A model generated the notes under the pieces. The model did not search any database. It saw nothing but the letters and a program-made list of their open reading frames with translations, and was not told the origin of the DNA. Positions 1 to 12,920 of a stretch of DNA of 12,920 nt are shown here, in pieces. The stretch is from a virus (taxonomy: Duplodnaviria > Heunggongvirae > Uroviricota > Caudoviricetes): the IMG/VR virus record IMGVR_UViG_2609459769_000019; one strand, written 5' to 3'. Position numbers and translations under genes: made by a program. Within the stretch, counting starts at the first letter, position 1, and each line of letters begins with the position of its first letter.

Positions 1-546
1 CGTTTCCCGTAAACCGACGTTATCGATAAAAGCCCCTTTATCCGGAATGTCTGCGCCGTTCTGCTCCCTGCGCAGGTAACGGTTATCACCTTCGCTTTTG
101 CTGTAAACATCCAGATTATTACGGGCGGTTCCCTTATTCTCCAGGTCGGCGAGATTCTGATCCTTCGCCAGGGCATTAACGTCAGCGGGACCAAGACTGT
201 TTTTTGTGGCAAGCGTCCCCAGACCAAGATAACCACGGGCCAGACGCTGGGCCTCCGCACCGGCATCAGCAATTTCTTTCAGGTTATTTTTCCGGGAAAA
301 AGCATTCGCAGCGATAATGGCTTTAATGGACAGCGTAAGCTGGTTTAACTGCGCCTTATCCGGCTGAATACTGGCTTCAGCCAGAATATTCAGCAGTTCG
401 GCCTGGAGAATATTCAGCCAGTCCTGACCAATCCAGCTGATACCTTTTTGTCCGTCACCTTCAGTAAACCAGGTGGTGGTATTACTCTGCGCCGGTGCCA
501 GCGCAGGCATATTCGCCACGCCGGAATTATTATCAACATGAAACAT
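1..546 (-). CDS. Tail fibre protein, N-terminal part (partial; ORF runs off the window at position 1)
   Basis: ATG at 546-544 overlapping the upstream stop (TAATG); 182 codons open to the window edge, which is why it is absent from the ORF track; translation MFHVDNNSGVANMPALAPAQ...REQNGADIPDKGAFIDNVGLRET ends in an NGADIxDKxAF motif that I recognise from P2/Mu/lambdoid-type tail fibres. Confidence 0.55.
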   Translation of the reverse strand, partial: MFHVDNNSGVANMPALAPAQSNTTTWFTEGDGQKGISWIGQDWLNILQAELLNILAEASIQPDKAQLNQLTLSIKAIIAANAFSRKNNLKEIADAGAEAQRLARGYLGLGTLATKNSLGPADVNALAKDQNLADLENKGTARNNLDVYSKSEGDNRYLRREQNGADIPDKGAFIDNVGLRET

Positions 547-875
547 TAAATAGTCTCCTCTTCATGGCTGTTTGCATACACGTAAATAAACGTCTGCCAT
601 GCAGGCTTATAACGGTTCAGAATACATTCCAGCGCACCGCCTTCATAAATACGCAGCGGCGTGAGAATATCATCCAGCACATTCATATTCCGGTAGCCGG
701 TTTCACTGTTAATCGTGACAATACTGACCCACTGTGAATCCGGTGATGGCTGAATATCTATTTCATAACCAAACTCTGCCGCAAACCGGATATAAAATTC
801 ACGGTTAAGAGAGGGTTTCATCCGGTATTTATTCCCGGCATAACGCTGACGCTCCTGAATGGTTGCGCCGGTCAT
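546..875 (-). CDS. C-terminal fragment of a Mu gp48 / DUF2313-like tail (baseplate) protein, translatable from an internal ATG (109 aa)
   Basis: ATG at 875 overlaps the stop of the preceding ORF (ATGA); segments FYIRFAAEFGYEIDI and LECILNRYKPAWQTFIYVY resemble the conserved C-terminal half of YmfQ/gp48-like proteins as I remember them; homology-like sequence (YLGLPECD) continues upstream of the ATG in the same frame until a stop at 915-917. Confidence 0.4.
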   Translation of the reverse strand: MTGATIQERQRYAGNKYRMKPSLNREFYIRFAAEFGYEIDIQPSPDSQWVSIVTINSETGYRNMNVLDDILTPLRIYEGGALECILNRYKPAWQTFIYVYANSHEEETI

Positions 876-1159
876 ATCACATTCCGGTAACCCCAGATAA
901 TGGCAACGGTGCCTTCAAAGGTTTTGTTCACGATGGCGTAGCCATAGGCTTTCATCTTCTCGATGACGCGGGAGCCGATCCACTCACGGAACTGCGGGAA
1001 CTGCCCCAGCCAGCCGTAGGTGTTGGATTTCGACGTGGACGGTACGGTCATCGCAATTTTCTGGTACTGAGACGGAGCCATGGACATCCCGGCCTGAAAA
1101 TCAGAACGGTAGCCCGTCATCAGGGCGGTGATCATCGCCGGTGTGATCGGGGTAGGCAT
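872..1159 (-). pseudogene. T: Truncated major head subunit (Mu T-like), N-terminal 95 codons only
   Basis: ATG at 1159 overlapping the stop of the I-like gene (TAATG) with upstream AAGAGGAAA; N-terminus ...SNTYGWLGQFPQFREWIGSRV...NKTFEGTV matches the Mu-type major head protein N-terminal pattern; frame stops at 874-872, whereas full-length proteins of this family are about 300 aa. Confidence 0.6.
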
Positions 1160-2283
1160 TATTGCATTTCCTCTTTCATTTTCAGGAACTCGGCTTCGGT
1201 TTTACCCAGCAGATGGGCGGCGGCGATATCTTCAGCCGACAGCGCAGCGGTGGCGGTCTTTTTATCCGGCACGGTTACGGTGTCGGTCTGAAGAGTGGTC
1301 AGAGCCGCAACCGGCTGGCGGGCGTCAAGCTGTGCAGAAAGTGCCGCAACACCAATCTGTTGTCCGAGTCCTTCCATGTATCCGCGTTCGCTTTTGAAAA
1401 TGCGTCCTTCGGACTCGGCCTTATCCAGCAACTGCTCCAGCGTGGTGCTGCCGTGTTGTGCCGACAACGCGACATATTCGGTACGCAGGGCGTTATACGT
1501 CTCAACGGGCACGTATTTCGTCAGATCAATAGTGCCGCCAGTTGGTGTGCCTTTTGCGGTTTCCAGCTCTGCCGACAGGCTGGCAACCTGCGTTTTCAGG
1601 GTGTCGTGCGCATCCGCACGGGTTTTGATCCCGGTAAGGGCAGACAGCGCCGCCGTGCCCAGTTCCGGTGTAAATTCGTCACCGTCGGCCACGGTCAGAC
1701 CGAGCGCCGTCAGCAACTGGCGTAATTGCTCATTCATGGAGGTGTCCTTTAAAGGAGGGTTTAAGGCGTTATAAAGGTCATCCGCCGACAGTGCGGCGAC
1801 AGGATTCATGCCAGTCAGACCGGGGTCACCGGTAATAGCCAGCATCCGAAGCTCAACAGGTTCACCGGTGATTTCGTCATAACCAATCACCGGGGAAAAC
1901 CAGGGAAATTCGTTATTGCGCAGGTGTTCAATGGCCGGAGGGTTCCAGTCCGGACGCACTTCAAAACCCCGCTCTTCACTGAAGCGGAAGTTTTCCGGTG
2001 AGGCCATGACAAAACCGGCAGCCGGTGCCGGATGCCCCTTAATCAGGGTCTGGTGGTTGTAGTCAATTTTTACCGGCTGATTGAGCGCCACAACCCGGGA
2101 TACCATGCGCTCAACGGCCGCATGGTTAATCAGCCAGCCTTCCGCCGGTTTTTCCGGGCGACCGTCACGGGCCTTTACCCGACCGGCTGGCATGATCTGA
2201 CACCAGTCACCGTCCCCGTCTGCGGACAGGCTGATGGCATTCAGAATGGCATAAGCAAGTTTGGGCGTGTTTTTCGTCTTCAT
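1159..2283 (-). CDS. I: Head maturation protease / scaffold (Mu I-like), 374 aa
   Basis: ATG at 2283; size and position (after G, before T) as in Mu; Ala/Leu-rich, coiled-coil-like C-terminal half consistent with an embedded scaffold domain. Confidence 0.75.
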   Translation of the reverse strand: MKTKNTPKLAYAILNAISLSADGDGDWCQIMPAGRVKARDGRPEKPAEGWLINHAAVERMVSRVVALNQPVKIDYNHQTLIKGHPAPAAGFVMASPENFRFSEERGFEVRPDWNPPAIEHLRNNEFPWFSPVIGYDEITGEPVELRMLAITGDPGLTGMNPVAALSADDLYNALNPPLKDTSMNEQLRQLLTALGLTVADGDEFTPELGTAALSALTGIKTRADAHDTLKTQVASLSAELETAKGTPTGGTIDLTKYVPVETYNALRTEYVALSAQHGSTTLEQLLDKAESEGRIFKSERGYMEGLGQQIGVAALSAQLDARQPVAALTTLQTDTVTVPDKKTATAALSAEDIAAAHLLGKTEAEFLKMKEEMQ

Positions 2284-2460
2284 TCCGGCAGCATAAGCCG
2301 GTGTTTTTCGGGGCCGGTTTTGCGGGACTTCAGAAAGTGCTGACAGGGGAAAAATGAGAAAGGCGCTTCACGCAGATTTTAAAGCCCGTTAAATACAGGT
2401 TAGAAAATCACGACACGCGCCTGAAGAGGGTAAGGCAATGCGTTTGTATACCTTAAACCA
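2284..2460 (-). promoter_or_regulatory. G-I intergenic region: candidate late promoter for I; positional equivalent of the Mu central strong gyrase site
   Basis: One of only three sizeable non-coding gaps in the late region (177 bp); contains C-runs flanked by A/T runs (e.g. TTTTTCCCC on the coding strand); promoter role inferred from position. Confidence 0.3.
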
Positions 2461-2934
2461 TTACGGCGTTTCTGTGGCCTTTTTAAAGCGTTTTCTGATT
2501 TCGTCCATGATCTCCTGTTCTGCCACCTGATCAAAGCCCATATACGGACGTGCGCCAATGGCCGCCGGTCCCGGTGGCATACCAGGCAGGCCACCCCACT
2601 GATGAATGGCCGCATAAGGTTCATTTGATCCAATCAGCGCCCAGGTATCGCCATAATCCGTGGTCAGGCGGCGGGCCAGATCGCCGTTCAGTGTCAGGAT
2701 TTTGCCGGGCGTGTATCCCTTACGGGTACGCCACTTGCGGTAAGGATCTGACCAGTCATGCCAGCGTTCGCCGTCCGGCTCTTTTTCCTGTTCAAACGCC
2801 ATTTCTGACGATGACAGAAGACTCTCCGCCACACTGCGGGCCAGGTCTTTTCCGCCGCCCACAAACTGAAGCCGGGCAAACACCCGCTGGAGACGCGTAA
2901 CGTCAACAACGACAGCGGCATCAATGGATGACAT
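2461..2934 (-). CDS. G: Virion morphogenesis protein (Mu G-like), 157 aa
   Basis: ATG at 2934 with GGAGG 5 nt upstream; size and position match Mu G. Confidence 0.7.
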   Translation of the reverse strand: MSSIDAAVVVDVTRLQRVFARLQFVGGGKDLARSVAESLLSSSEMAFEQEKEPDGERWHDWSDPYRKWRTRKGYTPGKILTLNGDLARRLTTDYGDTWALIGSNEPYAAIHQWGGLPGMPPGPAAIGARPYMGFDQVAEQEIMDEIRKRFKKATETP

Positions 2935-2974
2935 ATTGCCTCCGCATAAAGGATGAATATAAAATAAACAGGCG

Positions 2975-3054
2975 GTCAGTGTACGCTTAACTGGTAAAGT
3001 CGGTGCCTGCCTCCGGGTGGATCATGTATGCGGGTTCGACCCCCGCCACTGACC
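2975..3054 (+). other. tRNA-like structural element (7-bp acceptor-like stem plus canonical T-arm) in the F-G intergenic region; not a complete tRNA
   Basis: GTCAGTG (2975-2981) pairs perfectly with CACTGAC (3047-3053); internal 5-bp stem GCGGG/CCCGC (3030-3034 / 3042-3046) closes a 7-nt loop TTCGACC (T-loop-like); I could not fold a convincing anticodon arm by hand and no CCA is encoded. Confidence 0.25.
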
Positions 3055-3055
3055 G

Positions 3056-4387
3056 TTAATCAATTTGTCCTTCCAGCACCTCAAGCATTCCGCCCCGGAT
3101 ATCCGATTTCAGCTTATCCATATTGATAACCCGGTAAGCATTCACAATCACATCCAGTTTGTCGGGCTGACGTTTCAGACTGTACGGTGCATTAACGGCA
3201 ATCTGCACACTGCCATCCTGATTTTCCACGATATACATCAGATTGTTGTGCCGTTTGTCCCACAGTACCGCTTTTGGCCTTGCCAGCATTGCCGGTAAGC
3301 GCCCGAAGTCCTCCGGCGTCAGAGCGATGCCGTCATTCTGATGTTTCACACTGTCCGCATGGAGCACATTTTTACCGCTCATCGCCAGCAGGCGGGCCGG
3401 TGGCGTTCCCGTCCGGCTTTCCACTGCCTGCGCAATGCTTTCAGTCATAAAGCCCAGCGTGCGGATATCGTTACCACCTCGCCGGGTCTGCATGATGTTT
3501 TTTGCCCAGATGCGGAACGCCAGCTGCCGCTCCGGGCTGTTGTTCATCTCCTGAACCACCATTTCCCGTAACGCCGGGCTTTTCACCTCGATCAGTTTGC
3601 GGATCAGCGCCTGGTCTGTGCCGAACGCTGCCGAGCCGGGGTTATATGACCAGCCCACATCCGGTGTCATGGTTCTGGTGCCATCTGAATATGTGGTCAC
3701 CGGCATTTCTCTGACTTCTCCGGTCTGTTTATCCACGCCAGCCTCAACATTGCGGGTGGAGAGATGATCCTCACCGGATGAAACGGATAACCCCATTGCA
3801 TCCAGACGGGCCTGAGACAATGGCCGCACACGGCAGCGGCAGTTCCAGCCATTGGGCGGGTAGTGTGTTTTCCAGAACGGATCGTCATAGCGGAATACCA
3901 GACCGTTAAGGGCGGAATGCGACGGGCGGGTACGGCTGTCCATGACCGCCACATACTGCCAGAACGGATGCGTGTCCGTGTTGTTCATCATCTGCGTGTA
4001 ACGCCCGGCATTGTAAGCCACACGGGTGTTCACGTTGTAAATCAGCGCCAGACGACGGGGACTGCCCAGCTGCACTTCTTCCGCGTTACCGTCGCTGTCC
4101 ACCACAATCTGCTTTCCCCACCATCCCAGCTTTTGCAGGCGTGGCGTCAGCGTGCGGATAAATGCTTTCTGTGAAATTCCCTCATCAATGGCCCGCTGCA
4201 CTTCGGCCTGTAACGTGGTCACCACATCCAGGCGTGCCGCTTTTGCTGCCGTGAATGAGCGGGCATGAACATCCGCGGCTGTTTCGAACCAGTTCCAGCT
4301 GATATGCGCCCCTTTGACACGGAAGTATGCTACCGCCTCTTTTGAGGGAAGCGTGGCGGCATAACCTAAATCAATCCCCTGTGTCAT
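3056..4387 (-). CDS. F: Head morphogenesis protein (Mu F-like, gp30 family), 443 aa
   Basis: ATG at 4387 overlapping the portal gene end by 17 nt; conserved WNCRCRV-type motif; position between portal and G as in Mu. Confidence 0.75.
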   Translation of the reverse strand: MTQGIDLGYAATLPSKEAVAYFRVKGAHISWNWFETAADVHARSFTAAKAARLDVVTTLQAEVQRAIDEGISQKAFIRTLTPRLQKLGWWGKQIVVDSDGNAEEVQLGSPRRLALIYNVNTRVAYNAGRYTQMMNNTDTHPFWQYVAVMDSRTRPSHSALNGLVFRYDDPFWKTHYPPNGWNCRCRVRPLSQARLDAMGLSVSSGEDHLSTRNVEAGVDKQTGEVREMPVTTYSDGTRTMTPDVGWSYNPGSAAFGTDQALIRKLIEVKSPALREMVVQEMNNSPERQLAFRIWAKNIMQTRRGGNDIRTLGFMTESIAQAVESRTGTPPARLLAMSGKNVLHADSVKHQNDGIALTPEDFGRLPAMLARPKAVLWDKRHNNLMYIVENQDGSVQIAVNAPYSLKRQPDKLDVIVNAYRVINMDKLKSDIRGGMLEVLEGQID

Positions 4388-5960
4388 CCAGCATCCCCTT
4401 CATTTCCGCAGCAAACATGGCATCACTGAGCAGCGTCATCAGGCGGGAATCATCCATTTCACGATAAAGGGCAGGCAGGTCTGCCAGCGCATCCGCCAGC
4501 CCCCGCGTTCTGATGGCATCAATGACCGGCTCCAGTACCGGGTCGATGGCCTCCTGTAAGCGGCGGGCAGGCACCGCGTCCCCCATATCATCCAGTTCAT
4601 CACGCGGCGTGCTTTTCGCTTCCGGCAGTCTGGCTGACAGCGCCGTCTGCTCTGTTTTTTCCTGTTTTTCCGGTGGTGTTTCCCTGTCGGTCTGAGCCGG
4701 TTCATTGCCACTCTGACGGACACGGAATATGGCTTCACCGGGCGTGGGCTGCGGAATACCGGTCTGCTCCCGTATCCAGGGATCAGAAATATCCATCCCC
4801 GTACTGAGCTGCATCACCGCACTGGTGATTTTGGTGATATCACCTGGTTCTTTGGTCTGGAAGCAGATACGTGGCAGACGGCGGATATCAATAGTGTGCG
4901 TGGTGTTCAGGGCGTACAGCGGATACACCAGATCGCGGTTCAGGGTTGCAGCCAGCTGCCGTAAATCAGAATCCCTGATTTCCCGGCGCACCTCGTTATG
5001 CACCTCACCCAGCGAGCGCGCGCCTTTGTCTCCGGCTTCCGTGGTCAGCGTGCCGCCGAGTATTGCTTTGGAGATGGAACGCTCCCCCCACGAAATCATG
5101 GTTTCAAATGGATCGGCCTGACCGTTTGCTGCCGCCTGAAATTCCAGCGACATCCCGGCCGGGATGATCCCGCCTGTACGTCGCCCGATATCCATCACCG
5201 CCCGCATCAGGGCGCTTTTCTGCTCCGGTGTTGCCCCGGACGGGTATTTCCCGACCTTCATCGGCAGTCCGTACACCTCCAGAAATTCGGCCAGATCGCG
5301 CACGGAATAGTTTTTGAAAATGAACGGCCAGATAAGCGTCCTGACAAGCCCCGTTGCGCCACCGTAACCGGTCCGTGAACGTGACTGATGCACTATCCAG
5401 CCAAAAGGCTGAAACGCCACCCCGGCATGGCTGCCGTCACGCAGCCGCAGTTCGCTCAAATCATCCGGGTTAAGGCAGAAATGCCCGCTGTCACGCCAGC
5501 GGATGGCGCGGATGATGTGCATTTTACCGAGCATCCCGTGCTCAATTTCCATGCAGGAATAGCCCTTCAGGATGGCATCCGTGGCGTCAAACAGCATGGC
5601 ATCAAACCAGTCTGCGGAATGCAGATATTCGTCGAGCATTTCCGCGTCCTTTTTCTCATTCGCGCTGGCGTTCGGTGGCGGCTCAATACTCCATGGCACC
5701 CCCTGAATGGCAAGACGTCGCTTGCCCAGCTCCGCAAAAAGGTGGGTGTCCTTTTCTTCAATATCAGCGGCCAGATCGGACTGGGCAATCAGATCGCCAC
5801 GTTCAGCCCCGCGAAGGCACTGCGCCGCCCGGTTCGGGGTGATACCCGAAGCCGGATGTTCAATATAACGGCTGGCAATCTGCGGAATATCCAGCGCGGC
5901 ACTCTGCATCTCCGGGTCAAAGGAGAAAGGTTTTCCGTCAGTATCAATGATGCGTCCCAC
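4371..5960 (-). CDS. Portal protein (Mu gp29-like), 529 aa
   Basis: GTG start at 5960 overlapping the terminase stop (TAGTG); large ORF immediately after the large terminase; size as expected for a Mu-type portal. Confidence 0.75.
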   Translation of the reverse strand: MGRIIDTDGKPFSFDPEMQSAALDIPQIASRYIEHPASGITPNRAAQCLRGAERGDLIAQSDLAADIEEKDTHLFAELGKRRLAIQGVPWSIEPPPNASANEKKDAEMLDEYLHSADWFDAMLFDATDAILKGYSCMEIEHGMLGKMHIIRAIRWRDSGHFCLNPDDLSELRLRDGSHAGVAFQPFGWIVHQSRSRTGYGGATGLVRTLIWPFIFKNYSVRDLAEFLEVYGLPMKVGKYPSGATPEQKSALMRAVMDIGRRTGGIIPAGMSLEFQAAANGQADPFETMISWGERSISKAILGGTLTTEAGDKGARSLGEVHNEVRREIRDSDLRQLAATLNRDLVYPLYALNTTHTIDIRRLPRICFQTKEPGDITKITSAVMQLSTGMDISDPWIREQTGIPQPTPGEAIFRVRQSGNEPAQTDRETPPEKQEKTEQTALSARLPEAKSTPRDELDDMGDAVPARRLQEAIDPVLEPVIDAIRTRGLADALADLPALYREMDDSRLMTLLSDAMFAAEMKGMLDDTGD

Positions 5961-7627
5961 TACCAGCCCCCCCGATCAAATTCATGATATGCCTCATCGT
6001 CATCACGATAACCGCCCTCCATTGCCCGCGACCGCTCCGGTAGCGCCTGACAGGCTGATTCATCCAGGATGAAGCCCTCCATGTATGACGCCCGGTTTGC
6101 CATACAGAGCGCCACGGCAAAATCACCATGGCGGCGGGCGTTCGCAGCCGTTGCGTTCTGGTCCTTCGTGCGCCCCTTGTCGATTTGCGGGATACCATTC
6201 ACTACCTTCACATGGCGCAAATCATCAAGCGTGGTCTGATGGCGGGCGACGAGGATATTCTGATCTTCAAACTCGGCTTTCAGTTTTGGCATCCACTCGC
6301 CGTACCACTTCGGCGACAACATCACGCAGTCGATGATATCCGGGCCAAAGGCCAGCAGTGCGGCCTCTGCCAGATAGCCGCCGTTACCGGTGGCGTCGAA
6401 CGCCGCACCGACCAGCGCCGGAACGCGGGTCAGGATGTACATCATCACCTGTTCCTGCTGGGCATACGGCAGGTTGCGCAGCTCCACGCGAAACACCTCG
6501 CGCTTTGCCAGGGATTCGGTGATTTCCAGCAGCACAAAGCAGGACAGGTCACCGGTGCGGGCAAAGTCTTCCCCGAAGCTGAAGCGGGAACGGGGATTTA
6601 ATTTCTCTAAAAGCGGTTTTAAATGTTCTTCACACCAGGTTAAAACTTCCGATTCACGCAGCCATGCGGCACGGCTGATGAAGTTGTCCGGGGCTTCAAA
6701 CGTCAGAATCGGGATGTCGCGGATCATCGCCATTTCAATAAGCGCGTGGGGGATATAGGCACCGCCGGATTTTTTCGGGATACAGCCGTATTCCTCGTCG
6801 GCATCCTCACGGGTCGGGGCGTTTTTGTAGAGATCATCACGCCATTTCTGCTCGCTTTCCGGTGACCATTCCTGATCGGTGACGTAACAGATACGACGGT
6901 ACAGCCCGTCCGCAATGGCATCATCCAGGGTTATGCGGTGGACGCTGTAATCCTTGCGCCCCTCGCGGGCTTCCTGAATGTACTGATTAAACAGATTATC
7001 GACGCCGTTATGCGTGGAGATAATACGCACGCGCGCGCCCCACATAGTGAGCGCCATTGCCGCCTTGAGAAGCTCATCCAGTGACTCGTGGAACGCGGCT
7101 TCATCAATCACCACATCCCCCTGAAGGCCGCGCAGGTTTGACGGACGGGAAGACAATGCCTGAATTTTGAATCCACTGTTCGGAAAGCGGATCATGTAGG
7201 TCAAAATTTCTTCTTTTTTATCCCGATCCCAGAATGTCTGCTCATACACATCAGCATCTGCCAGCTGGTTAAAGGCACGGGAGAACAGCGCGCAGGCAGA
7301 AATATATTCCAGCGCCATCTCCTGCTTTGATCCCACATAAAACACATTGCGGCCACCACGACGCTTCGGTTTTGCAGCAGTAATGACGTTACGCCCGGCT
7401 TCCGCCCAGGTAAGACCGGTGCGGCGGGATTTCTCCGCGATGCAGACCTGACTTTCATCTGCAAACCAGCGGGCCTGATAATCCAGAAACACCGGCATAT
7501 CACCGGGCAAATCAAGGCTGTCCGGCACATCCACGCCCAGCAGGGCTTTTTCACCTGACAGATCAATTTTGCGGGGAGGCGTCATTTGCATCAGTGAAGG
7601 CGACGTTTCTCTGGCTTTGTTCATCAT
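5960..7627 (-). CDS. Terminase large subunit (Mu gp28-like), 555 aa
   Basis: ATGATG at 7627-7622 overlapping the upstream stop (ATGA); N-terminal ATPase-like region (Walker-B-like VVIDEAAF) and C-terminal nuclease-like region; followed by the portal. Confidence 0.8.
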   Translation of the reverse strand: MMNKARETSPSLMQMTPPRKIDLSGEKALLGVDVPDSLDLPGDMPVFLDYQARWFADESQVCIAEKSRRTGLTWAEAGRNVITAAKPKRRGGRNVFYVGSKQEMALEYISACALFSRAFNQLADADVYEQTFWDRDKKEEILTYMIRFPNSGFKIQALSSRPSNLRGLQGDVVIDEAAFHESLDELLKAAMALTMWGARVRIISTHNGVDNLFNQYIQEAREGRKDYSVHRITLDDAIADGLYRRICYVTDQEWSPESEQKWRDDLYKNAPTREDADEEYGCIPKKSGGAYIPHALIEMAMIRDIPILTFEAPDNFISRAAWLRESEVLTWCEEHLKPLLEKLNPRSRFSFGEDFARTGDLSCFVLLEITESLAKREVFRVELRNLPYAQQEQVMMYILTRVPALVGAAFDATGNGGYLAEAALLAFGPDIIDCVMLSPKWYGEWMPKLKAEFEDQNILVARHQTTLDDLRHVKVVNGIPQIDKGRTKDQNATAANARRHGDFAVALCMANRASYMEGFILDESACQALPERSRAMEGGYRDDDEAYHEFDRGGW

Positions 7628-7872
7628 GCTTTACCTGTCAGAATGCTTTTGATTCGGGACTCAAGCTCTTCAGTCATCACGTCCACGCCGCTCAACTCAT
7701 CAGTGGCAGCCTCTGCCAGCAGCGAATGCAGTTGTTCCAGGGATATTTCCCCGGCAATGCTGAGTTCAGTCAACTCACGACATACCTTTATGGTTTCAGG
7801 AGGTAACTGTGTTGCAAGACTGAATGCTTTCTGATGGGCACTGCTCATCAGTGAGCGGTTATCTGTTGCCAT
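7624..7872 (-). CDS. Small protein (82 aa), paralogous to the C-terminus of the gp27-like protein
   Basis: ATG at 7872 preceded by AGGAGGTGA with 5-nt spacer; C-terminus ATDELSGVDVMTEELESRIKSILTGKA parallels gp27 C-terminus VTDELRGVDGMSEQIEFRIRQMLLGKA; nucleotide similarity visible between about 7627-7720 and 7886-7985. Confidence 0.5.
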   Translation of the reverse strand: MATDNRSLMSSAHQKAFSLATQLPPETIKVCRELTELSIAGEISLEQLHSLLAEAATDELSGVDVMTEELESRIKSILTGKA

Positions 7873-7882
7873 GATTCACCTC

Positions 7883-8464
7883 CTACGCCTTACCCAGCAG
7901 CATCTGCCTGATACGGAATTCGATCTGCTCGCTCATGCCATCCACGCCGCGCAACTCATCGGTGACCGCATTCGCCATCTCTTCAGCAAATGCGGCCCGG
8001 ATTTCTTTTTCACGCTTAATGCTGCGCTCGGCGGCACTTTCTGCACGCTGTGCCGACAGGAGGATGTCCTTAATAAGGCGCATATCCACATCGCTGTCGC
8101 TGTTCAGGGATTCGGTGGCGGCACGCAGACGGCGGTACATCAGGGCACGGGACATCTCCAGAATCAGTGCCGTGGTTTCACCGGTCGGCTTATCCCCCAG
8201 TTCGGCCATCATGGCTTTTGTCTGCTCGCGTAAATCACGCAGATTACGGGCAATCAGCTCATTACGGGAGGCTTCCCGGCTGATGGCCGCCGGTGAGAGC
8301 TGCTGCTCTTCCGGCAGACCTGCTTCACGGATCAGACGGTTGATTTCCTCGCGGATCTGGACCTGCGTCAGACGTTTTTCACGCAGCATTTCCAGCAGCG
8401 GCTTACGGATGCTGTCGGGGAGCAAATCCACCTTGCGTACACGGCCACGCGTCGGCTTATCCAT
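7883..8464 (-). CDS. Mu gp27-like protein (DUF3486), putative terminase small subunit / packaging DNA-recognition protein, 193 aa
   Basis: ATG at 8464 with AAGGGGG upstream; charged, coiled-coil-rich protein directly upstream of the large terminase as in Mu. Confidence 0.65.
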   Translation of the reverse strand: MDKPTRGRVRKVDLLPDSIRKPLLEMLREKRLTQVQIREEINRLIREAGLPEEQQLSPAAISREASRNELIARNLRDLREQTKAMMAELGDKPTGETTALILEMSRALMYRRLRAATESLNSDSDVDMRLIKDILLSAQRAESAAERSIKREKEIRAAFAEEMANAVTDELRGVDGMSEQIEFRIRQMLLGKA

Positions 8465-8466
8465 CG

Positions 8467-8757
8467 TTACCCCCTTGCGCGTGGTTTCTTCACACCCGGA
8501 ACAGTGGCACGACCTTCCGCCACATCCTGACCCCGGCCGGTCAGTTCAGCGATGAAATAACCGTTAACAAGCGTGCGCTTACGCACCAGTCCCTGCTCAG
8601 CAAGCCAGGCAATGTGGGTGTGAACGGTGTCGCGGGACACGCGGTGGCCGTAATCATCCAGGCAGTCCTGAAGCACGGATTCGCCCAGTTCGCCGTTGTA
8701 ATCCGCCAGCGACCGCAGAATGACAAGACGCTGATCTTCAGTAATGAAATCACTCAT
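8467..8757 (-). CDS. Small protein at the Mu gp26 position, possible winged-helix-like fold, 96 aa
   Basis: ATG at 8757 with AAGGAA upstream; overlaps the preceding gene by 8 nt; function not assignable from sequence. Confidence 0.5.
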   Translation of the reverse strand: MSDFITEDQRLVILRSLADYNGELGESVLQDCLDDYGHRVSRDTVHTHIAWLAEQGLVRKRTLVNGYFIAELTGRGQDVAEGRATVPGVKKPRARG

Positions 8758-9061
8758 TGTGTTTTTTCCTTACAGCCTGCTCCAGCAGCAGTTCGTTCTG
8801 ATGGGAGACGGATTTCAGGGTGGCATTGGTGGCCTTAAGCTCACCGCGCAGGGTGGTGATTTCGATATTGAGTCTGTTCACCTCCTGCTGCGTGGGCAGG
8901 CCGGAAATCCGGCTCTCCACCCGCTCAACCCGGTCGGAGAGTTTTTCAAAGGCCTCGCGGGGGACAAAGGTTTTGCGCATCAGCGCCATGAAGATCCCCC
9001 CGGCTGTGGCCGTTGCCGACAGGATCGGCACGACATAATCTTTAACGATGCTGACCCACAT
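8750..9061 (-). CDS. Mu gp25-like membrane protein (candidate releasin of the lysis cassette), 103 aa
   Basis: ATG at 9061 with GGAGG upstream; N-terminal hydrophobic segment VVPILSATATAGGIFMALM followed by a charged coiled-coil-like domain; lies between the lysis genes and the packaging genes. Confidence 0.45.
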   Translation of the reverse strand: MWVSIVKDYVVPILSATATAGGIFMALMRKTFVPREAFEKLSDRVERVESRISGLPTQQEVNRLNIEITTLRGELKATNATLKSVSHQNELLLEQAVRKKHNE

Positions 9062-9269
9062 GACCGGCCTCCATGATGTTCTGGCAGTTCACACAACGGA
9101 TGGCATCCGGCACGGCAACCAGACGGGCAGCCGGAATGTCACCCCCGCAGTCCGCGCATACACGCCTGCCCGGTGTCTCCGCCACCCGGCGCTTACGTGT
9201 CAGCCGGTCACAAAGGGCGCGTTCTGTTGCACGCTCCATGACTGCCTGAGCACAATCTGAATCATCCAT
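9042..9269 (-). CDS. TraR/DksA-family C4 zinc-finger protein, 75 aa
   Basis: ATG at 9269 preceded by AAGGAAAAAGG; CxxC...CxxC motif (CADCGG...CVNCQ); the longer track ORF (to 9335) lacks an RBS and overlaps the o-spanin. Confidence 0.65.
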   Translation of the reverse strand: MDDSDCAQAVMERATERALCDRLTRKRRVAETPGRRVCADCGGDIPAARLVAVPDAIRCVNCQNIMEAGHVGQHR

Positions 9270-9279
9270 ACCTTTTTCC

Positions 9280-9651
9280 TTACTTCGTCTTTCCTGCCGG
9301 AACAGCAGTCGTTCCGGCCATATCAGTAAATTCATGCTGTCGCTGTGTCTCCAGACGGCGGATGCTGGCCTTGTCCACGTTGCAGTTTTTAATCACCGCC
9401 AGCAGTTGCAGGTTGTAAGTGACCGATGCACCAAACGTGAACGGCTGCGGCGCGGGAGGGACCAGGCAGTCAGCCAGCCATTCAGCGGGGATCGGCACCG
9501 GCGGCACAGGGACGAATTTCACAGACGGCCCGCCGCACCCGGTCAGCCACATCATCAGGCACAGGCACAGCGGCAGCAGGCACCGTTGCCAGTGACCGGC
9601 GGACAATGCTCTGCTGTTCCTCGCTGTGCTGCATGTTCTGCTGTTTTTCAT
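9280..9651 (-). CDS. o-spanin (outer-membrane lipoprotein), overlapping the i-spanin in another frame
   Basis: ATG at 9651 with AAGGCGG upstream; signal peptide ending in lipobox LTGC; proline-rich mature region (PVPPVPIP, PPAPQP); start choice uncertain. Confidence 0.5.
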   Translation of the reverse strand: MKNSRTCSTARNSRALSAGHWQRCLLPLCLCLMMWLTGCGGPSVKFVPVPPVPIPAEWLADCLVPPAPQPFTFGASVTYNLQLLAVIKNCNVDKASIRRLETQRQHEFTDMAGTTAVPAGKTK

Positions 9652-9910
9652 TCGTGGCCGCCTTGCTGATTTGTGAAATGAGTTGCAGGGTGCGTTGCTG
9701 GTTTGCCAGCACCAGACGGGCTTCGTCCCGTTCACGCACAAGCACATGATTATTGTCCTCAAGGCGCTGCGTCTTCTGGTGCATTCCCCATACCACGGCA
9801 GCCAGCACGCTCATCACCCCCAGCGCCGCCATGCTCGCCCCGGCAATCAGGGCCGGTAAGGGATTGTTCACCACAGCCACAGTGCCCCCCGCAGCGCCAC
9901 AACGGCACAT
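9482..9910 (-). CDS. i-spanin (inner-membrane spanin subunit)
   Basis: N-terminal TM segment LPALIAGASMAALGVMSVLAAVVW followed by charged/Gln-rich coiled-coil-like periplasmic domain; directly downstream of the endolysin; ATG at 9910 chosen, but the track ORF starts at a TTG at 10003 inside lys, so the start is uncertain. Confidence 0.5.
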   Translation of the reverse strand: MCRCGAAGGTVAVVNNPLPALIAGASMAALGVMSVLAAVVWGMHQKTQRLEDNNHVLVRERDEARLVLANQQRTLQLISQISKAATNEKQQNMQHSEEQQSIVRRSLATVPAAAVPVPDDVADRVRRAVCEIRPCAAGADPR

Positions 9911-9944
9911 AACAGCGCAATCATGAGCGGTCGACAGAGCCGGT

Positions 9945-10445
9945 TCAGACTTTCGGCAAGTCGTAGCGACATAACCATTCATCCGCCGAACGGCGGGCCT
10001 CAAGGCCGGGGAGTTTCACCCCCTTTGAATAAATCCAGCGGATATACTGCTTACAGGACGCGGGCATCTGTCCGGCATTGATAAGGCGCAGAAGCGTGGA
10101 GTTGCGGAAGTTCGTTTCACCGGCCCAGAAGATCCACGAAGCCAGCGCCACCGTCTGACCACGGGTAAGTGGCACCTGAACACGCCGGTCAATGGCCGCA
10201 AAGGCCCATTTCATGTCCTTTTCCAGCAGTTCCAGACATTCTTCATCGGTTTTTGTCATACCCGGTTTCACATCCGGGCCGGTATGGCCGTGGCAGATGG
10301 TGGGGGTGCCGGTGGGGTCGAGATACGTGGTGTTTTCTTTCCCTTCCCAGTAGCCGGTGTAGTGCGTGGCAATAGTGAACGTCCCGGCTCCGGCCAGAAC
10401 AAGGGCAATCAGCTTTTTACGCAGTGGCGCGGGGAGTTTTGGCAT
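9945..10445 (-). CDS. lys: Endolysin, T4-lysozyme-like (GH24) with N-terminal signal-anchor-release (SAR) segment, 166 aa
   Basis: ATG at 10445; N-terminal LIALVLAGAGTFTIATHY hydrophobic stretch after a basic N-terminus; catalytic E-x8-D-x5-T triad (EGKENTTYLDPTGTPT) followed by GHTG motif. Confidence 0.85.
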   Translation of the reverse strand: MPKLPAPLRKKLIALVLAGAGTFTIATHYTGYWEGKENTTYLDPTGTPTICHGHTGPDVKPGMTKTDEECLELLEKDMKWAFAAIDRRVQVPLTRGQTVALASWIFWAGETNFRNSTLLRLINAGQMPASCKQYIRWIYSKGVKLPGLEARRSADEWLCRYDLPKV

Positions 10446-10516
10446 TGTTACGCTGTCTCATGGTGTTCTCTGAGCCAGCGTAACCGTGGAAAAAAGGGGG
10501 CAGGATTTGCGGAATA
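10446..10516 (-). promoter_or_regulatory. Candidate activator-dependent late promoter upstream of the endolysin (Plys equivalent)
   Basis: 71-bp gap between the activator gene and lys; coding strand contains CCTGCCCCCTTTTTTCC; assignment by position only. Confidence 0.3.
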
Positions 10517-10939
10517 TCAGAAAAGCCGGGGCTGCGTGCGCTCCTGATGCAGGCGACGCTGGTTGCGGATAACGGAGTAAATCTGCGTCTCTGACATCTG
10601 GTAATGGCGGCGCAGGGTTTCAATTTTTTCACCCTGGCTCCAGCGGGAAAAAATCTCATTATTGCGCAGTTCGGTGAAAAGGGATTCACCGACCGGGAGA
10701 TAATAACCACGCCCGCCCATGTACCCGGCCTGTGCGGCCGCAACCTTACGGGCAAGCATTCCCGCCTGAGCAGATTCAATCCCCTGACGGTGCAGTTCAG
10801 CACTGATCACATCAACCAGGTCACGCAGCGTGCCGGGCCAGTTCTTTTTCAGCTCATCATCAGGAATATCATCCAGACGGTCAATCAGCGCGTGCAGCTG
10901 TTCGCTGTCACCAAACATGCTCATCTGTGTTTCAGCCAT
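10517..10939 (-). CDS. Mor/C-family transcriptional activator (140 aa; by size and position more likely the C-type late activator)
   Basis: ATG at 10939 with GGAGG 6 nt upstream; acidic N-terminus and basic C-terminal HTH-like region typical of Mor/C proteins; sits immediately upstream of lys. Confidence 0.75.
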   Translation of the reverse strand: MAETQMSMFGDSEQLHALIDRLDDIPDDELKKNWPGTLRDLVDVISAELHRQGIESAQAGMLARKVAAAQAGYMGGRGYYLPVGESLFTELRNNEIFSRWSQGEKIETLRRHYQMSETQIYSVIRNQRRLHQERTQPRLF

Positions 10940-10971
10940 ACCCGCCTCCGGTCATCATTACACAGGGCAAG

Positions 10972-11005
10972 TTTAAAATAAAAATCCCGCGCTGTGGCGG
11001 GATTT
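10972..11005 (-). terminator. Rho-independent terminator after the truncated transposase gene (possibly doubling as an activator-binding dyad)
   Basis: Minus-strand AAATCCCGC-CACAGC-GCGGGATTT hairpin (9-bp GC-rich stem, 6-nt loop; plus 10982-11005) followed by TTATTTT; starts 5 nt after the stop codon at 11012-11010. Confidence 0.55.
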
Positions 11006-11009
11006 GGGG

Positions 11010-11918
11010 TTAAAAAGGGGAGGATTCTTCATACAGCCTGCAAACGCGCTCATAACTCATCACTGTACGCGCTGACACCCGGCCTTTTTGTTTCACCACT
11101 TCCGGCAGTTTCTTCATTGCGCGGCGAATGGTGTCATAAGACGGCATGATATCGAGCATATAAGGCTCATCAGCGTGCCGGTACTGCCATTCAGCGACAA
11201 AATCCTCGTAAGCCTCGGTCATTGGTCGGCCGTTTGACTGGCGATACTGCGCCAGAAATTCGGGCAGCCAGTTAATATCTTCGGCTTTTATTTCCTGGCG
11301 CTTACCAGGTGCCAGCAAAAGCAGGCGTTCAGCGGCGTTCTGCGCCTTGTTAAAGGCTGCAATCCAGCGTTTCAGCGTGATTTCACTCAACGCACGGCTG
11401 TTTCCCTTTTTGGCGTTCGCCGTCTCAACCATTGCCACAATGCGCTCGTCCAGTTGCGAACGTGCCAGGTTGTCAACGATAAACCGGATAGCCTTCGCAC
11501 AGCTGAAACCAGGTTGTTGCGCGACTTTCAGAACTTCGCTGACGATCGCGATTCGTGCATCAGCCACCTGGCGCTGGTTTTCAGTCAGAGCATTAAGGCG
11601 TTCGACCATCAGTTGTGGTGATCCGCGATATGCCTCCACCGCATCAACCACGGCAGGCGAGCGTCTGGCCTTTGTCACCACTGGAGCCGGTGATTCATCG
11701 ACTTTTTGAGTCATCAGTTGCAGGGCGTAGCGTTCACGTAATGCCTGCTGCGTCACTTCAGGTAAACAGTCGATGCTGTATTCAGTTGCTTTAGAGCCTG
11801 AGCGACGACGGGAACAACAGCTTTTCCCTTGTACGTAACGTTGTAATGCCTGGCGAATACCTTTTGTTGTAGCAGGCATTCCGGGCGCGCCAATCAGTTC
11901 TTTTGCAATGACATACAT
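11010..11918 (-). CDS. Truncated Mu transposase A homologue: N-terminal DNA-binding domain only (302 aa), no DDE catalytic core
   Basis: ATG at 11918, 1 nt after the ner stop; N-terminus APGMPATTKGIRQALQRY...GSKATEYSIDCLPEVTQQALRER resembles the winged-helix enhancer-binding domain of MuA/Mu repressor as I remember it; ORF stops at about 300 aa against about 660 aa for full-length MuA; terminator follows directly. Confidence 0.55.
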   Translation of the reverse strand: MYVIAKELIGAPGMPATTKGIRQALQRYVQGKSCCSRRRSGSKATEYSIDCLPEVTQQALRERYALQLMTQKVDESPAPVVTKARRSPAVVDAVEAYRGSPQLMVERLNALTENQRQVADARIAIVSEVLKVAQQPGFSCAKAIRFIVDNLARSQLDERIVAMVETANAKKGNSRALSEITLKRWIAAFNKAQNAAERLLLLAPGKRQEIKAEDINWLPEFLAQYRQSNGRPMTEAYEDFVAEWQYRHADEPYMLDIMPSYDTIRRAMKKLPEVVKQKGRVSARTVMSYERVCRLYEESSPF

Positions 11919-11919
11919 A

Positions 11920-12168
11920 TCATGACGCCTTTCTCATATAGCTCTTAACCTGGTATCGACTGGGCCAGATTTCTTCAGGCGATACCCCAAGAGCATCAGC
12001 AATTATTTGCTGATACGGTCGGCAAGGAGTACGTAATACGCTTTTCAGCGAATCCCTGCTGTAACCAGCCTTTAAAGATAAAGAGCGCAGTGATAAGCCA
12101 GCCATGTGTAAGCGCGCCTTGATGATTTCAGGCGGCCAATCGTGATCTGAAACTTCTCTTCTACTCAT
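11920..12168 (-). CDS. ner: Ner-like DNA-binding regulator (82 aa)
   Basis: ATG at 12168 with AGAGGAAG upstream; ...LSLRSLSLKAGYSRDSLKSVL...QQIIADALGVSPEEIWPSRY matches the Mu Ner family signature (IIA.AL...P...WPSRY); divergent from the repressor gene. Confidence 0.85.
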   Translation of the reverse strand: MSRREVSDHDWPPEIIKARLHMAGLSLRSLSLKAGYSRDSLKSVLRTPCRPYQQIIADALGVSPEEIWPSRYQVKSYMRKAS

Positions 12169-12335
12169 ACTTCCTCTATTCTAAAAAGTTACCCGCGCGG
12201 ATATTCGTGCGGATATCTGTACGGGTAAATAATAGAACAAACAAAAGAACCAAATCAAGGTATTTTGTTCTTTTTATTCTTTGCGGTGTTTTTGTTATTA
12301 ATATCAATAAGATAAATAAAAAGGAACCTGAGAGC
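12169..12335. promoter_or_regulatory. Divergent immunity control region between ner and the repressor gene (candidate operators and promoters)
   Basis: AT-rich 167-bp spacer; tandem 12-bp direct repeat CGYGCGGATATY at 12194-12205 and 12206-12217, flanked by inverted TTACCCG (12189-12195) / CGGGTAA (12222-12228); second inverted repeat AGAACAAA (12234-12241) / TTTGTTCT (12264-12271); TAGAAT -10-like hexamer on the minus strand. Confidence 0.5.
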
Positions 12336-12920
12336 ATGAACATGAAAAACAGTTCTTTTCTCGACGAAGGAAAAGAACCAGTGATCGAACGGATTTTTCG
12401 TCTTGCAGAGCGTTACAAATCGAGAAGTGAGGCGGCTAGAGCATGGGGAATAAACGTTCAGACATTGCAGAACTACTACAAAAGGAGAAACAATCAGCCG
12501 CCACCACAACCAAGAAAGCACCATCTCCAGAACATTGCAGAAAGAGAACATGTATCTATGGAGTGGCTAGTCAATGGTTATGGTGATGAGCCAAGCATGA
12601 AAAAAGAACCAATTGAACAAACAAAAAGAACAAAAAAACAAAGAATTGATGATAGTGATTCCATCATCATGAGGGCGTGGGACTCGCTAACTTCATCTGA
12701 ACAAGAGATTTTGTCCAACTTATTGATCAGAAAAGGGGCCGAACTACTAACCGTTTTGCTTGATACAGATATTCAAAAACTGCACTCATTGAGCGGAGTC
12801 AAAAGAGCACTAGCATTGAGTCTACAAGAGTTACCCGATGATACTGTAAGAGAGATTTATGAAGAATGTGAAGCTAAGGTTAATCATTTAAATGTAACCC
12901 AGAAAAAGGCTGGTGCGTAA
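12336..12920 (+). CDS. Prophage repressor (194 aa): HTH N-terminal domain joined to a Mu c-like C-terminal domain
   Basis: ATG at 12336 (second ATG at 12342) preceded by AAGGAA; the track's longer ORF starts at a GTG at 12207 inside the operator region; N-terminus has a classical HTH (RSEAARAWGINVQTLQNY); C-terminal segment LLIRKGAELLTVLLDTDIQKLHSLSGVKRALALSLQELPDDTVREI resembles the Mu repressor C-terminal region from memory; gene is distinctly AT-rich. Confidence 0.65.
   Translation: MNMKNSSFLDEGKEPVIERIFRLAERYKSRSEAARAWGINVQTLQNYYKRRNNQPPPQPRKHHLQNIAEREHVSMEWLVNGYGDEPSMKKEPIEQTKRTKKQRIDDSDSIIMRAWDSLTSSEQEILSNLLIRKGAELLTVLLDTDIQKLHSLSGVKRALALSLQELPDDTVREIYEECEAKVNHLNVTQKKAGA

Follow-up and report, generated by a model that had tools for sequence, protein, structure and literature searches.

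A probable repressor gene, with a predicted Cro/CI-type head and a Mu c-type C-terminal domain, in a Mu-like prophage of Escherichia coli

The stretch of DNA analysed here (12,920 nucleotides, hereafter the window) is the left part of a Mu-like prophage of Escherichia coli in reverse orientation, and its features are collected in Table 1. At its far end lies rep, whose stop codon forms the final triplet of the window. Both here and in intact sibling prophages, rep lies alone between ner and the left end of the prophage and is divergent from ner and the MuA-type transposase gene. The same 585-bp coding sequence in the intact siblings encodes WP_001056416.1. A start at GTG 12207, which would give a reading frame of 237 aa, was rejected because ATG 12336 is the start in both the family alignment and RefSeq; this codon has an AAGGAA ribosome-binding site 9 nt upstream. 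Two antisense reading frames on the minus strand, of 55 aa (12176-12343) and 98 aa (12255-12551), lie over the spacer and the 5' half of rep. RefSeq annotates neither of them in the siblings, and the 55-aa frame has no Pfam match; both are probably artefacts of the AT-rich sequence.

Table 1. Features of the window, in window coordinates; domain rows refer to the product of rep.
Feature	Position	Strand	Remarks
Late genes: terminase, portal, F, G and I homologues, lysozyme		-	
Mor/C-family activator	10517-10939	-	
A', truncated MuA-type transposase, 302 aa	11010-11918	-	PF02316 at 4.4e-7
Deletion junction	11076-11080		L004 1124-8891 missing, 7.77 kb
Exchangeable immunity cassette	11785-12847		no DNA similarity to sibling L005; flanks 92-95% identical
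ner homologue, 82 aa	11920-12168	-	PF13693 HTH_35, 2.5e-19
Divergent promoter/operator spacer between rep and ner, 167 bp	12169-12335		32.9% GC
40-bp palindrome TTACCCG...CGGGTAA, candidate Ner site	12189-12228		two 12-bp direct repeats with CGGATAT inside
Imperfect inverted repeat, candidate repressor operators	12227-12282		four [AT]AGAA[CT][AC]A motifs at 12233-12281
Candidate early promoter into ner	12229-12258	-	-35 TTGATT 12258-12253, 18-nt spacer, -10 TATTAT 12234-12229
rep, immunity repressor gene (putative), 194 aa + stop	12336-12920	+	ATG 12336, TAA 12918-12920; phrog_3037 family
Cro/CI-type five-helix HTH DNA-binding domain (predicted), residues 13-85	12372-12590	+	recognition helix about 41-49, VQTLQNYYK
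Linker, variable, lysine-rich, residues 86-104	12591-12647	+	pLDDT <50 over 89-104
All-helical C-terminal domain, presumed oligomerisation/regulatory, residues 105-184	12648-12887	+	homologous to Mu c C-domain
Disordered tail, candidate ClpX recognition tail, residues 185-194	12888-12917	+	ends QKKAGA; pLDDT <50

Two parts of the window match intact prophages separately. By megablast, positions 898-11080 resemble Mu-like prophages of complete E. coli genomes (up to 99.1%) and positions 11076-12920 resemble the A-ner-rep end of such prophages (99.5%). Because the matching pieces lie 7.77 kb apart in the intact relative L004 (NZ_OZ547136), the window has an internal deletion. The catalytic core of the transposase, B, kil, gam and the remaining early genes were lost with it, and the early operon of ner and A' was joined immediately upstream of the genes for the Mor/C-family activator, lysis and late functions. 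The exact junction occurs in no complete E. coli genome of our collection. As a speculation, transcription from a derepressed early promoter might then read into the late activator, and this could favour retention of the repressor. Among the 5,426 complete E. coli genomes that were searched, about 230 contain Mu-like prophages with rep; O157:H7 is among them, as are other Shiga-toxin strains, and rep regions near-identical to that of the window occur in O157:H7 genomes. Sp18, the Mu-like prophage of O157 Sakai, is reportedly not inducible by mitomycin (PMC2669165). A second, independent Mu-like prophage remnant, L011 (the locus of P0116, at 3999-4547), has a different internal deletion, with a gene product that joins the N-domain of A to Mu gp36, and keeps rep and ner intact. 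Such derivatives, with the immunity end preserved, may be recurrent.

The N-terminal part of the repressor appears to be a conventional helix-turn-helix (HTH) domain of the Cro/CI type. In the AF2 model computed from the family alignment (mean pLDDT 75.6), five confident helices occupy residues 16-80 with pLDDT of about 85-90, and this domain superposes on 434 Cro, 434 repressor, P22 c2, 186 CI, SinR and DdrO with TMt of about 0.7 and rmsd of 2.3-3.4 A. Its matches in BFVD are Cro/C1 and CI repressors. The Pfam HTH matches of rep itself are below threshold (PF07022, Phage_CI_repr, at 12.8 bits against a cut-off of 22), and PF07022 is matched by 19 of the 29 family members at E <=0.01, with a best value of 2.1e-6. 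The Mu DNA-binding domain (PF02316) is matched by Mu c at 5e-54; rep does not match it, and none of the 29 family members is listed with such a match. In an hhalign comparison, the N-terminal halves of the rep and Mu c families score 13, which is the null level, and PHROGs gives no cross-match between them. The initial annotation had read a conventional HTH here in place of the winged helix of Mu c, and these results bear it out. Since the DNA-binding domain that defines it is absent, rep falls outside the strict Mu c family.

Mu c is related to MuA (E 6e-15) and also finds the N-terminus of A' in the window (E 2e-4), and rep has no similarity to its own A' (E 1.5). From these comparisons, the A transposase retained the Mu-type head and the repressor did not, and in the lineage of rep the DNA-binding domain is no longer common to repressor and transposase.

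The likeness of the C-terminal half to Mu c, which had also been proposed from the letters alone, can be read in two ways. It may reflect homology, or it may be convergent or compositional, in that generic leucine-rich helices would give a Cro/CI-type regulator with an unrelated dimerisation domain a superficial resemblance to Mu c. Aligned pairwise by BLASTP, rep and Mu c give no significant match (E 0.19), and this is in keeping with convergence; for the same reason, profile methods were needed. Mu, D108 and SfMu were not among the matches at E <=0.01 when 50,697 phage records were searched with rep by tblastn. When a 29-member family of rep was aligned with an 11-member family of Mu c by hhalign, residues 104-181 of rep matched residues 98-177 of Mu c with an E-value of 1.6e-4. 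The hhalign probability was 50-73%, which leaves some room for convergence, but the C-terminal halves alone scored 31.1 against 10.1 +/- 2.0 (maximum 21.8) in 200 column shuffles, about 10 sd above this null. In PHROGs, residues 94-191 of rep match phrog_7148, the family of Mu c itself, at 2.7e-7, and residues 90-185 of Mu c match phrog_3037 at 1.1e-4; such reciprocal matches, confined to the C-terminal halves, are not what convergence would predict.

A profile of the C-domain only, built solely from HTH-headed relatives, was searched in 1.84 billion proteins and found 114 representatives at E <=0.001. Among the 86 representatives whose heads were scanned, 35 have HTH_3, 32 have PF07022 and 14 have PF02316. 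An HMM built on the N-domain of Mu c recognises 16 of the representatives, and the library-wide E-values for their C-domains run from 3e-21 to about 2e-5; the retrieval of Mu-type proteins by a profile made without them argues against convergence. So does P0116, which has a PF02316 head at 2.5e-9, above threshold, and is 41% identical to rep over the last 79 residues, up to the C-terminus (E 8e-16). Its gene occupies the same position as rep, at the rep-ner end of another Mu-like prophage (L011). Four independent tests at the profile level, namely hhalign, the reciprocal PHROG matches, the C-domain profile and the bridge through P0116, were thus significant, and therefore we consider the C-domain a shared module. 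Convergence could still draw on the profile's matches to ankyrin-repeat proteins and on the structural search, in which Foldseek with the monomeric AF2 model of the C-domain gave no match in BFVD below E 4, but against the points above we regard it as very improbable. On this evidence the C-domain of rep is taken as homologous to that of Mu c, as the initial annotation had suspected. When PDB sequences were searched with the family profile, no match fell below E 0.03 and none concerned the C-domain.

Two observations concern the reach of such profiles. The C-domain profile matches long ankyrin-repeat proteins in multiple stretches (P0086, 2552 aa; P0180, 1110 aa). We rejected these as spurious repeat similarity: the conserved segment L..L.RKG.E..L.LLD resembles the ankyrin consensus, and it calls for caution when the C-domain of rep is used in searches. 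PF07037 (YfeC-like) matches residues 42-132 of Mu c at 9.7e-5, residues 76-138 of rep at 0.012, and several relatives, in all of them with the same region of the profile, up to position 113 of 122. The shared region is a hint that chromosomal regulators of the YfeC type may have the first helices of the C-domain in common with these repressors.

The combination of head and C-domain is not confined to this prophage. The product of rep matches phrog_3037 ('transcriptional repressor') end to end (2.3e-59, residues 1-192 against positions 3-189 of the 189 in the profile), and 57 full-length relatives, counted as clusters at 90% identity, come from Escherichia, Salmonella, Shigella, Edwardsiella, Hafnia, Arsenophonus and others. 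A search of genome contigs with the single rep protein found no related locus. Three of the relatives (P0034, P0016 and P0032, from E. coli, Salmonella and Edwardsiella) are 43-53% identical to rep, and each of their genes stands at a prophage end next to unrelated host genes and points away from ner, MuA, MuB and kil. Since the match to phrog_3037 is full-length and the relatives are widespread, the chimera is ancient, defines the family and is not an event of this prophage. The initial annotation had read the protein as a domain chimera and had named a full-length match to one known repressor family as a finding that would speak against its reading; such a match was found. By its sequence, then, rep is a member of an existing family with a Cro/CI-type head and a Mu c-type C-domain. 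Diverse repressor architectures among Mu-like phages have already been reported (PMC8541194). Our literature search found no paper on the repressor family of rep or on the link of its C-domain to Mu c, and no experimentally characterised member of phrog_3037.

It might be argued that rep is an accessory regulator, similar to DicA or carried as a moron gene, which came to lie at the prophage end by chance and is not the lysogeny repressor. RefSeq calls the product a 'hypothetical protein', and its only match in NCBIfam is DicA, weak and below threshold, which would fit such a reading. The position of the gene is against it, because rep is the sole gene between ner and the prophage end and is divergent from ner as Mu c is. 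The presence of a Mu c-type C-domain also argues for a repressor, and the early region of an intact sibling contains no other repressor candidate. In the isolated Mu-like phage VW-6B of Pseudomonas, the homologue is gene 1, in the position of c; its product (ATN93605.1), annotated 'C repressor', is 42% identical to rep over 86% of the length. Taken together, these points make an accessory role very improbable, and the assignment of rep as a repressor gives a putative function, based on homology, to a gene labelled as hypothetical in RefSeq.

The base composition of the region requires a separate explanation. The rep gene has 40.2% GC (GC3 36.4%) and ner 47.0%, and the late genes have 55-58% GC and a GC3 of 58-73%. 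In 585-bp windows across positions 1-11900, the mean is 55.8% GC (sd 2.8, minimum 45.6), which places rep at z = -5.5, and the best single breakpoint in GC lies after 11891. The impression in the initial annotation that the repressor and operator region are more AT-rich than the structural genes was therefore correct, and a quantitative plot is discontinuous. The same drop is found in phage Mu, in which c has 40.8% GC (GC3 37%), the spacer between c and ner 26.6% and the left end 36%, compared to 55% in the late genes and 52% in the genome. It is also found in L005 (rep 39.9%, spacer 29.7%, A and B 54.5% and 55.5%), L007 (40.5%, 30.5%, 50.7% and 50.9%), L009 (45.5%, 35.2%, 52.9% and 50.5%) and VW-6B (43.8%, 34.8%, 56.2% and 56.4%), and in L011, which has a repressor with a Mu-type head (42.7%, spacer 25.8%, sheath gene 57.6%). 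The 3' end of rep and the left-end DNA, conserved across cassette variants, have 34-38% GC. Because Mu c, all left ends checked and the non-exchanged flanks are equally AT-rich, the AT-richness is no evidence of a swap, and the suggestion that it points to module exchange must be given up. Low GC is a positional trait of the left ends of Mu-like genomes and not a mark of recent import. It is probably functional; the AT-rich segment beside Mu c contains the transposition enhancer (PMC5977238). Elsewhere in the window, a milder patch of low GC (45.5-47.7%) lies among the late genes at 301-900, where a reading frame runs on the minus strand (546-875), and it is the sole other stretch that nears the composition of the immunity region.

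Evidence for exchange comes instead from a comparison of siblings. L004, a prophage of the window type, and L005, an E. coli prophage of the P0034 type, share 94-95% identity across B and A as far as L004 position 9600. No DNA similarity is detectable between them over L004 9601-10663, which corresponds to the cassette in Table 1, and they are 92% identical again in the last 24 codons of rep and the left end of about 260 bp. The replaced block comprises the first 45 or so codons of A, ner, the spacer with its candidate operators, and codons 1-171 of rep. Between the two repressor proteins, identity is 32% across the HTH domain and reaches 74% over the final 34 residues. The earlier proposal that the immunity module was exchanged by recombination is thus upheld by the block swap relative to L005, while composition as its evidence, and the chimera as a one-off, are not. 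The exchange is among siblings that all have HTH-headed repressors. That a foreign AT-rich immunity module came recently from an unrelated low-GC phage and created a novel hybrid repressor, as the strong GC discontinuity (breakpoint near 11891) and an N-domain unrelated to that of Mu c might suggest, is so improbable that we set it aside, because the architecture is full-length in phrog_3037 and in clusters from several genera, every left end examined is as AT-rich as that of Mu, including the non-exchanged flank, and the rep region differs from that of intact siblings (L004) by 1 mismatch in 752 nt.

The spacer between rep and ner contains candidates for the sites that such a repressor would need. 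Sequences comparable to the -35 and -10 elements of the candidate early promoter are present in L007 and L009, as judged by eye. In the imperfect inverted repeat, the [AT]AGAA[CT][AC]A motifs lie two per strand and flank the -35 element; the motif was defined post hoc from these data, and four of its eight matches in the window fall in the inverted repeat. The 40-bp palindrome sits downstream of the candidate promoter, between it and ner. It is kept in L007 and L009, which have a similar Ner, and in L005, which has a different Ner, it is replaced by repeats of the TTTGATAAC/TTGTTATCAA type. The left end of Mu has no DNA similarity to the operator region of rep, and since the HTH is unrelated to the DNA-binding domain of Mu c, the operators of rep must differ from those of Mu and D108. 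The initial annotation had predicted a specificity different from these phages, and the prediction agrees with both observations.

The stability of the repressor may be controlled in the way described for Mu, whose repressor has a conditional C-terminal recognition signal for ClpX (PMC10584840, PMC3983244). An ending of the form K-[KQ]-A-x recurs in most of the rep family and in the Mu c family, in which it reads KKAV. The tail of rep, QKKAGA, departs from the strict consensus of C-motif-2, R/H-x-K/R-K-hydrophobic (PMC3983244). Because the Mu repressor has the signal, the C-domains are homologous and the tails are alike, stability gated by ClpXP is a reasonable expectation, and ClpXP-type control of rep is plausible by analogy. 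Pfam gives no match to the S24 peptidase (PF00717) in rep, and the family members have none; without this autocleavage domain, RecA-mediated SOS induction is not expected.

We therefore favour the reading that rep encodes the intact lysogeny (immunity) repressor of a Mu-like E. coli prophage rendered defective by an internal deletion, a modular protein of an old family with a Cro/CI-type head and a Mu c-type C-domain, encoded in an exchangeable cassette whose AT-richness is positional; we would put its probability at roughly 80%. Under this reading, the HTH (residues of about 13-85) would read operators in the spacer and shut off the divergent early promoter of ner and A, and oligomerisation would presumably fall to the helical C-domain (about 105-184), as in Mu c. 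The disordered, conserved K-K-A-x tail would be a candidate ClpXP degron, again as in Mu c. The same C-domain is joined to a Cro/CI-type HTH or to a Mu-type winged helix across the Mu-like phages. Swapping of the block from rep(1-171) through the operators and ner to A(1-45) between near-identical prophages would set the immunity specificity, much as between Mu and D108.

A broader suggestion, which we offer tentatively and do not hold to be the likelier case, is that the Mu c-type C-domain and the K-K-A-x tail may form a portable module for oligomerisation and protease-gated stability that is carried on interchangeable heads, and that the clade with Cro/CI-type heads lost its paralogy with the transposase. 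Competition between repressor and transposase at the enhancer/operator is a hallmark of Mu regulation. If the paralogy with the enhancer-binding domain of the transposase was lost, this competition would either use overlapping sites of unrelated sequence or have been given up. Should the tail function as a ClpXP degron, induction controlled by ClpXP would extend to a repressor family of the Cro/CI type.

The regulatory C-terminal domain of the Mu repressor is thus a shuffled module, attached to DNA-binding heads of at least two kinds. For these prophages, the limits of the exchangeable immunity cassette are now defined, and a low GC content around the repressor end of Mu-like genomes should be regarded as the norm and not as a sign of recent acquisition. 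The practical value lies mainly in annotation and in the prediction of heteroimmunity; a new mechanism could arise only through the ClpXP and enhancer questions.

Several known repressors share one part of this architecture and differ in another. The repressors of the lambda CI/LexA type in mitomycin-inducible Mu-like phages (PMC8541194) have a Cro/CI-type HTH at the N-terminus, as rep has, but they carry an S24 peptidase, which rep lacks, its C-domain being predicted as all-helical. Coliphage 186 CI (PF07022 and PF16452; PDB 2fjr) has the HTH Pfam type that was found in 19 of the 29 members of the rep family, and 2fjr is among the fold matches of the head; its C-terminal oligomerisation domain, PF16452, is absent from the Pfam matches of rep at E up to 1, and the C-domain of rep is of the Mu c type instead. 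The other phrog_3037 repressors, such as those of VW-6B and of the Yersinia Mu-like phages vB_YpM_5/6, are homologous to rep over their full length and have the same synteny, and differ only by sequence divergence and presumably in operator specificity.

The heteroimmune region of Mu and D108 resembles the cassette described here, in that a block of most of the repressor, the operators, ner and the 5' end of A varies between close relatives. The divergent block of Mu and D108 reaches into the 5' end of A. Both of their repressors have a DNA-binding domain of the Mu type, and it co-varies with the N-terminus of A; in L004 and L005, by contrast, the repressors of both cassette variants have a Cro/CI-type HTH, and the Mu-type domain is kept by A. 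In SfMu, the C-repressor is 89% identical to that of D108 and only 24% to that of Mu, and Ner is 98% and 47% identical, respectively (PMC4406740).

The closest counterpart is Mu c itself (Repc; phrog_7148), which is also a left-end gene divergent from ner, A and B. The two proteins are of nearly the same length (196 aa in Mu c, 194 aa in rep) and have the same order of DNA-binding domain, linker, helical C-domain and short tail, with homologous C-domains and with tails that end in KKAV and KKAGA, respectively. In both, the gene and spacer are AT-rich and the S24 autoprotease domain is lacking. The heads are different, a Mu winged helix in Mu c and a predicted Cro/CI-type HTH in rep, and the operator sequences are unrelated. 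Because of its Cro/CI-type head, rep, unlike Mu c, is not a paralogue of the N-domain of its own transposase. Apart from DNA recognition, by analogy, rep probably works like Mu c.
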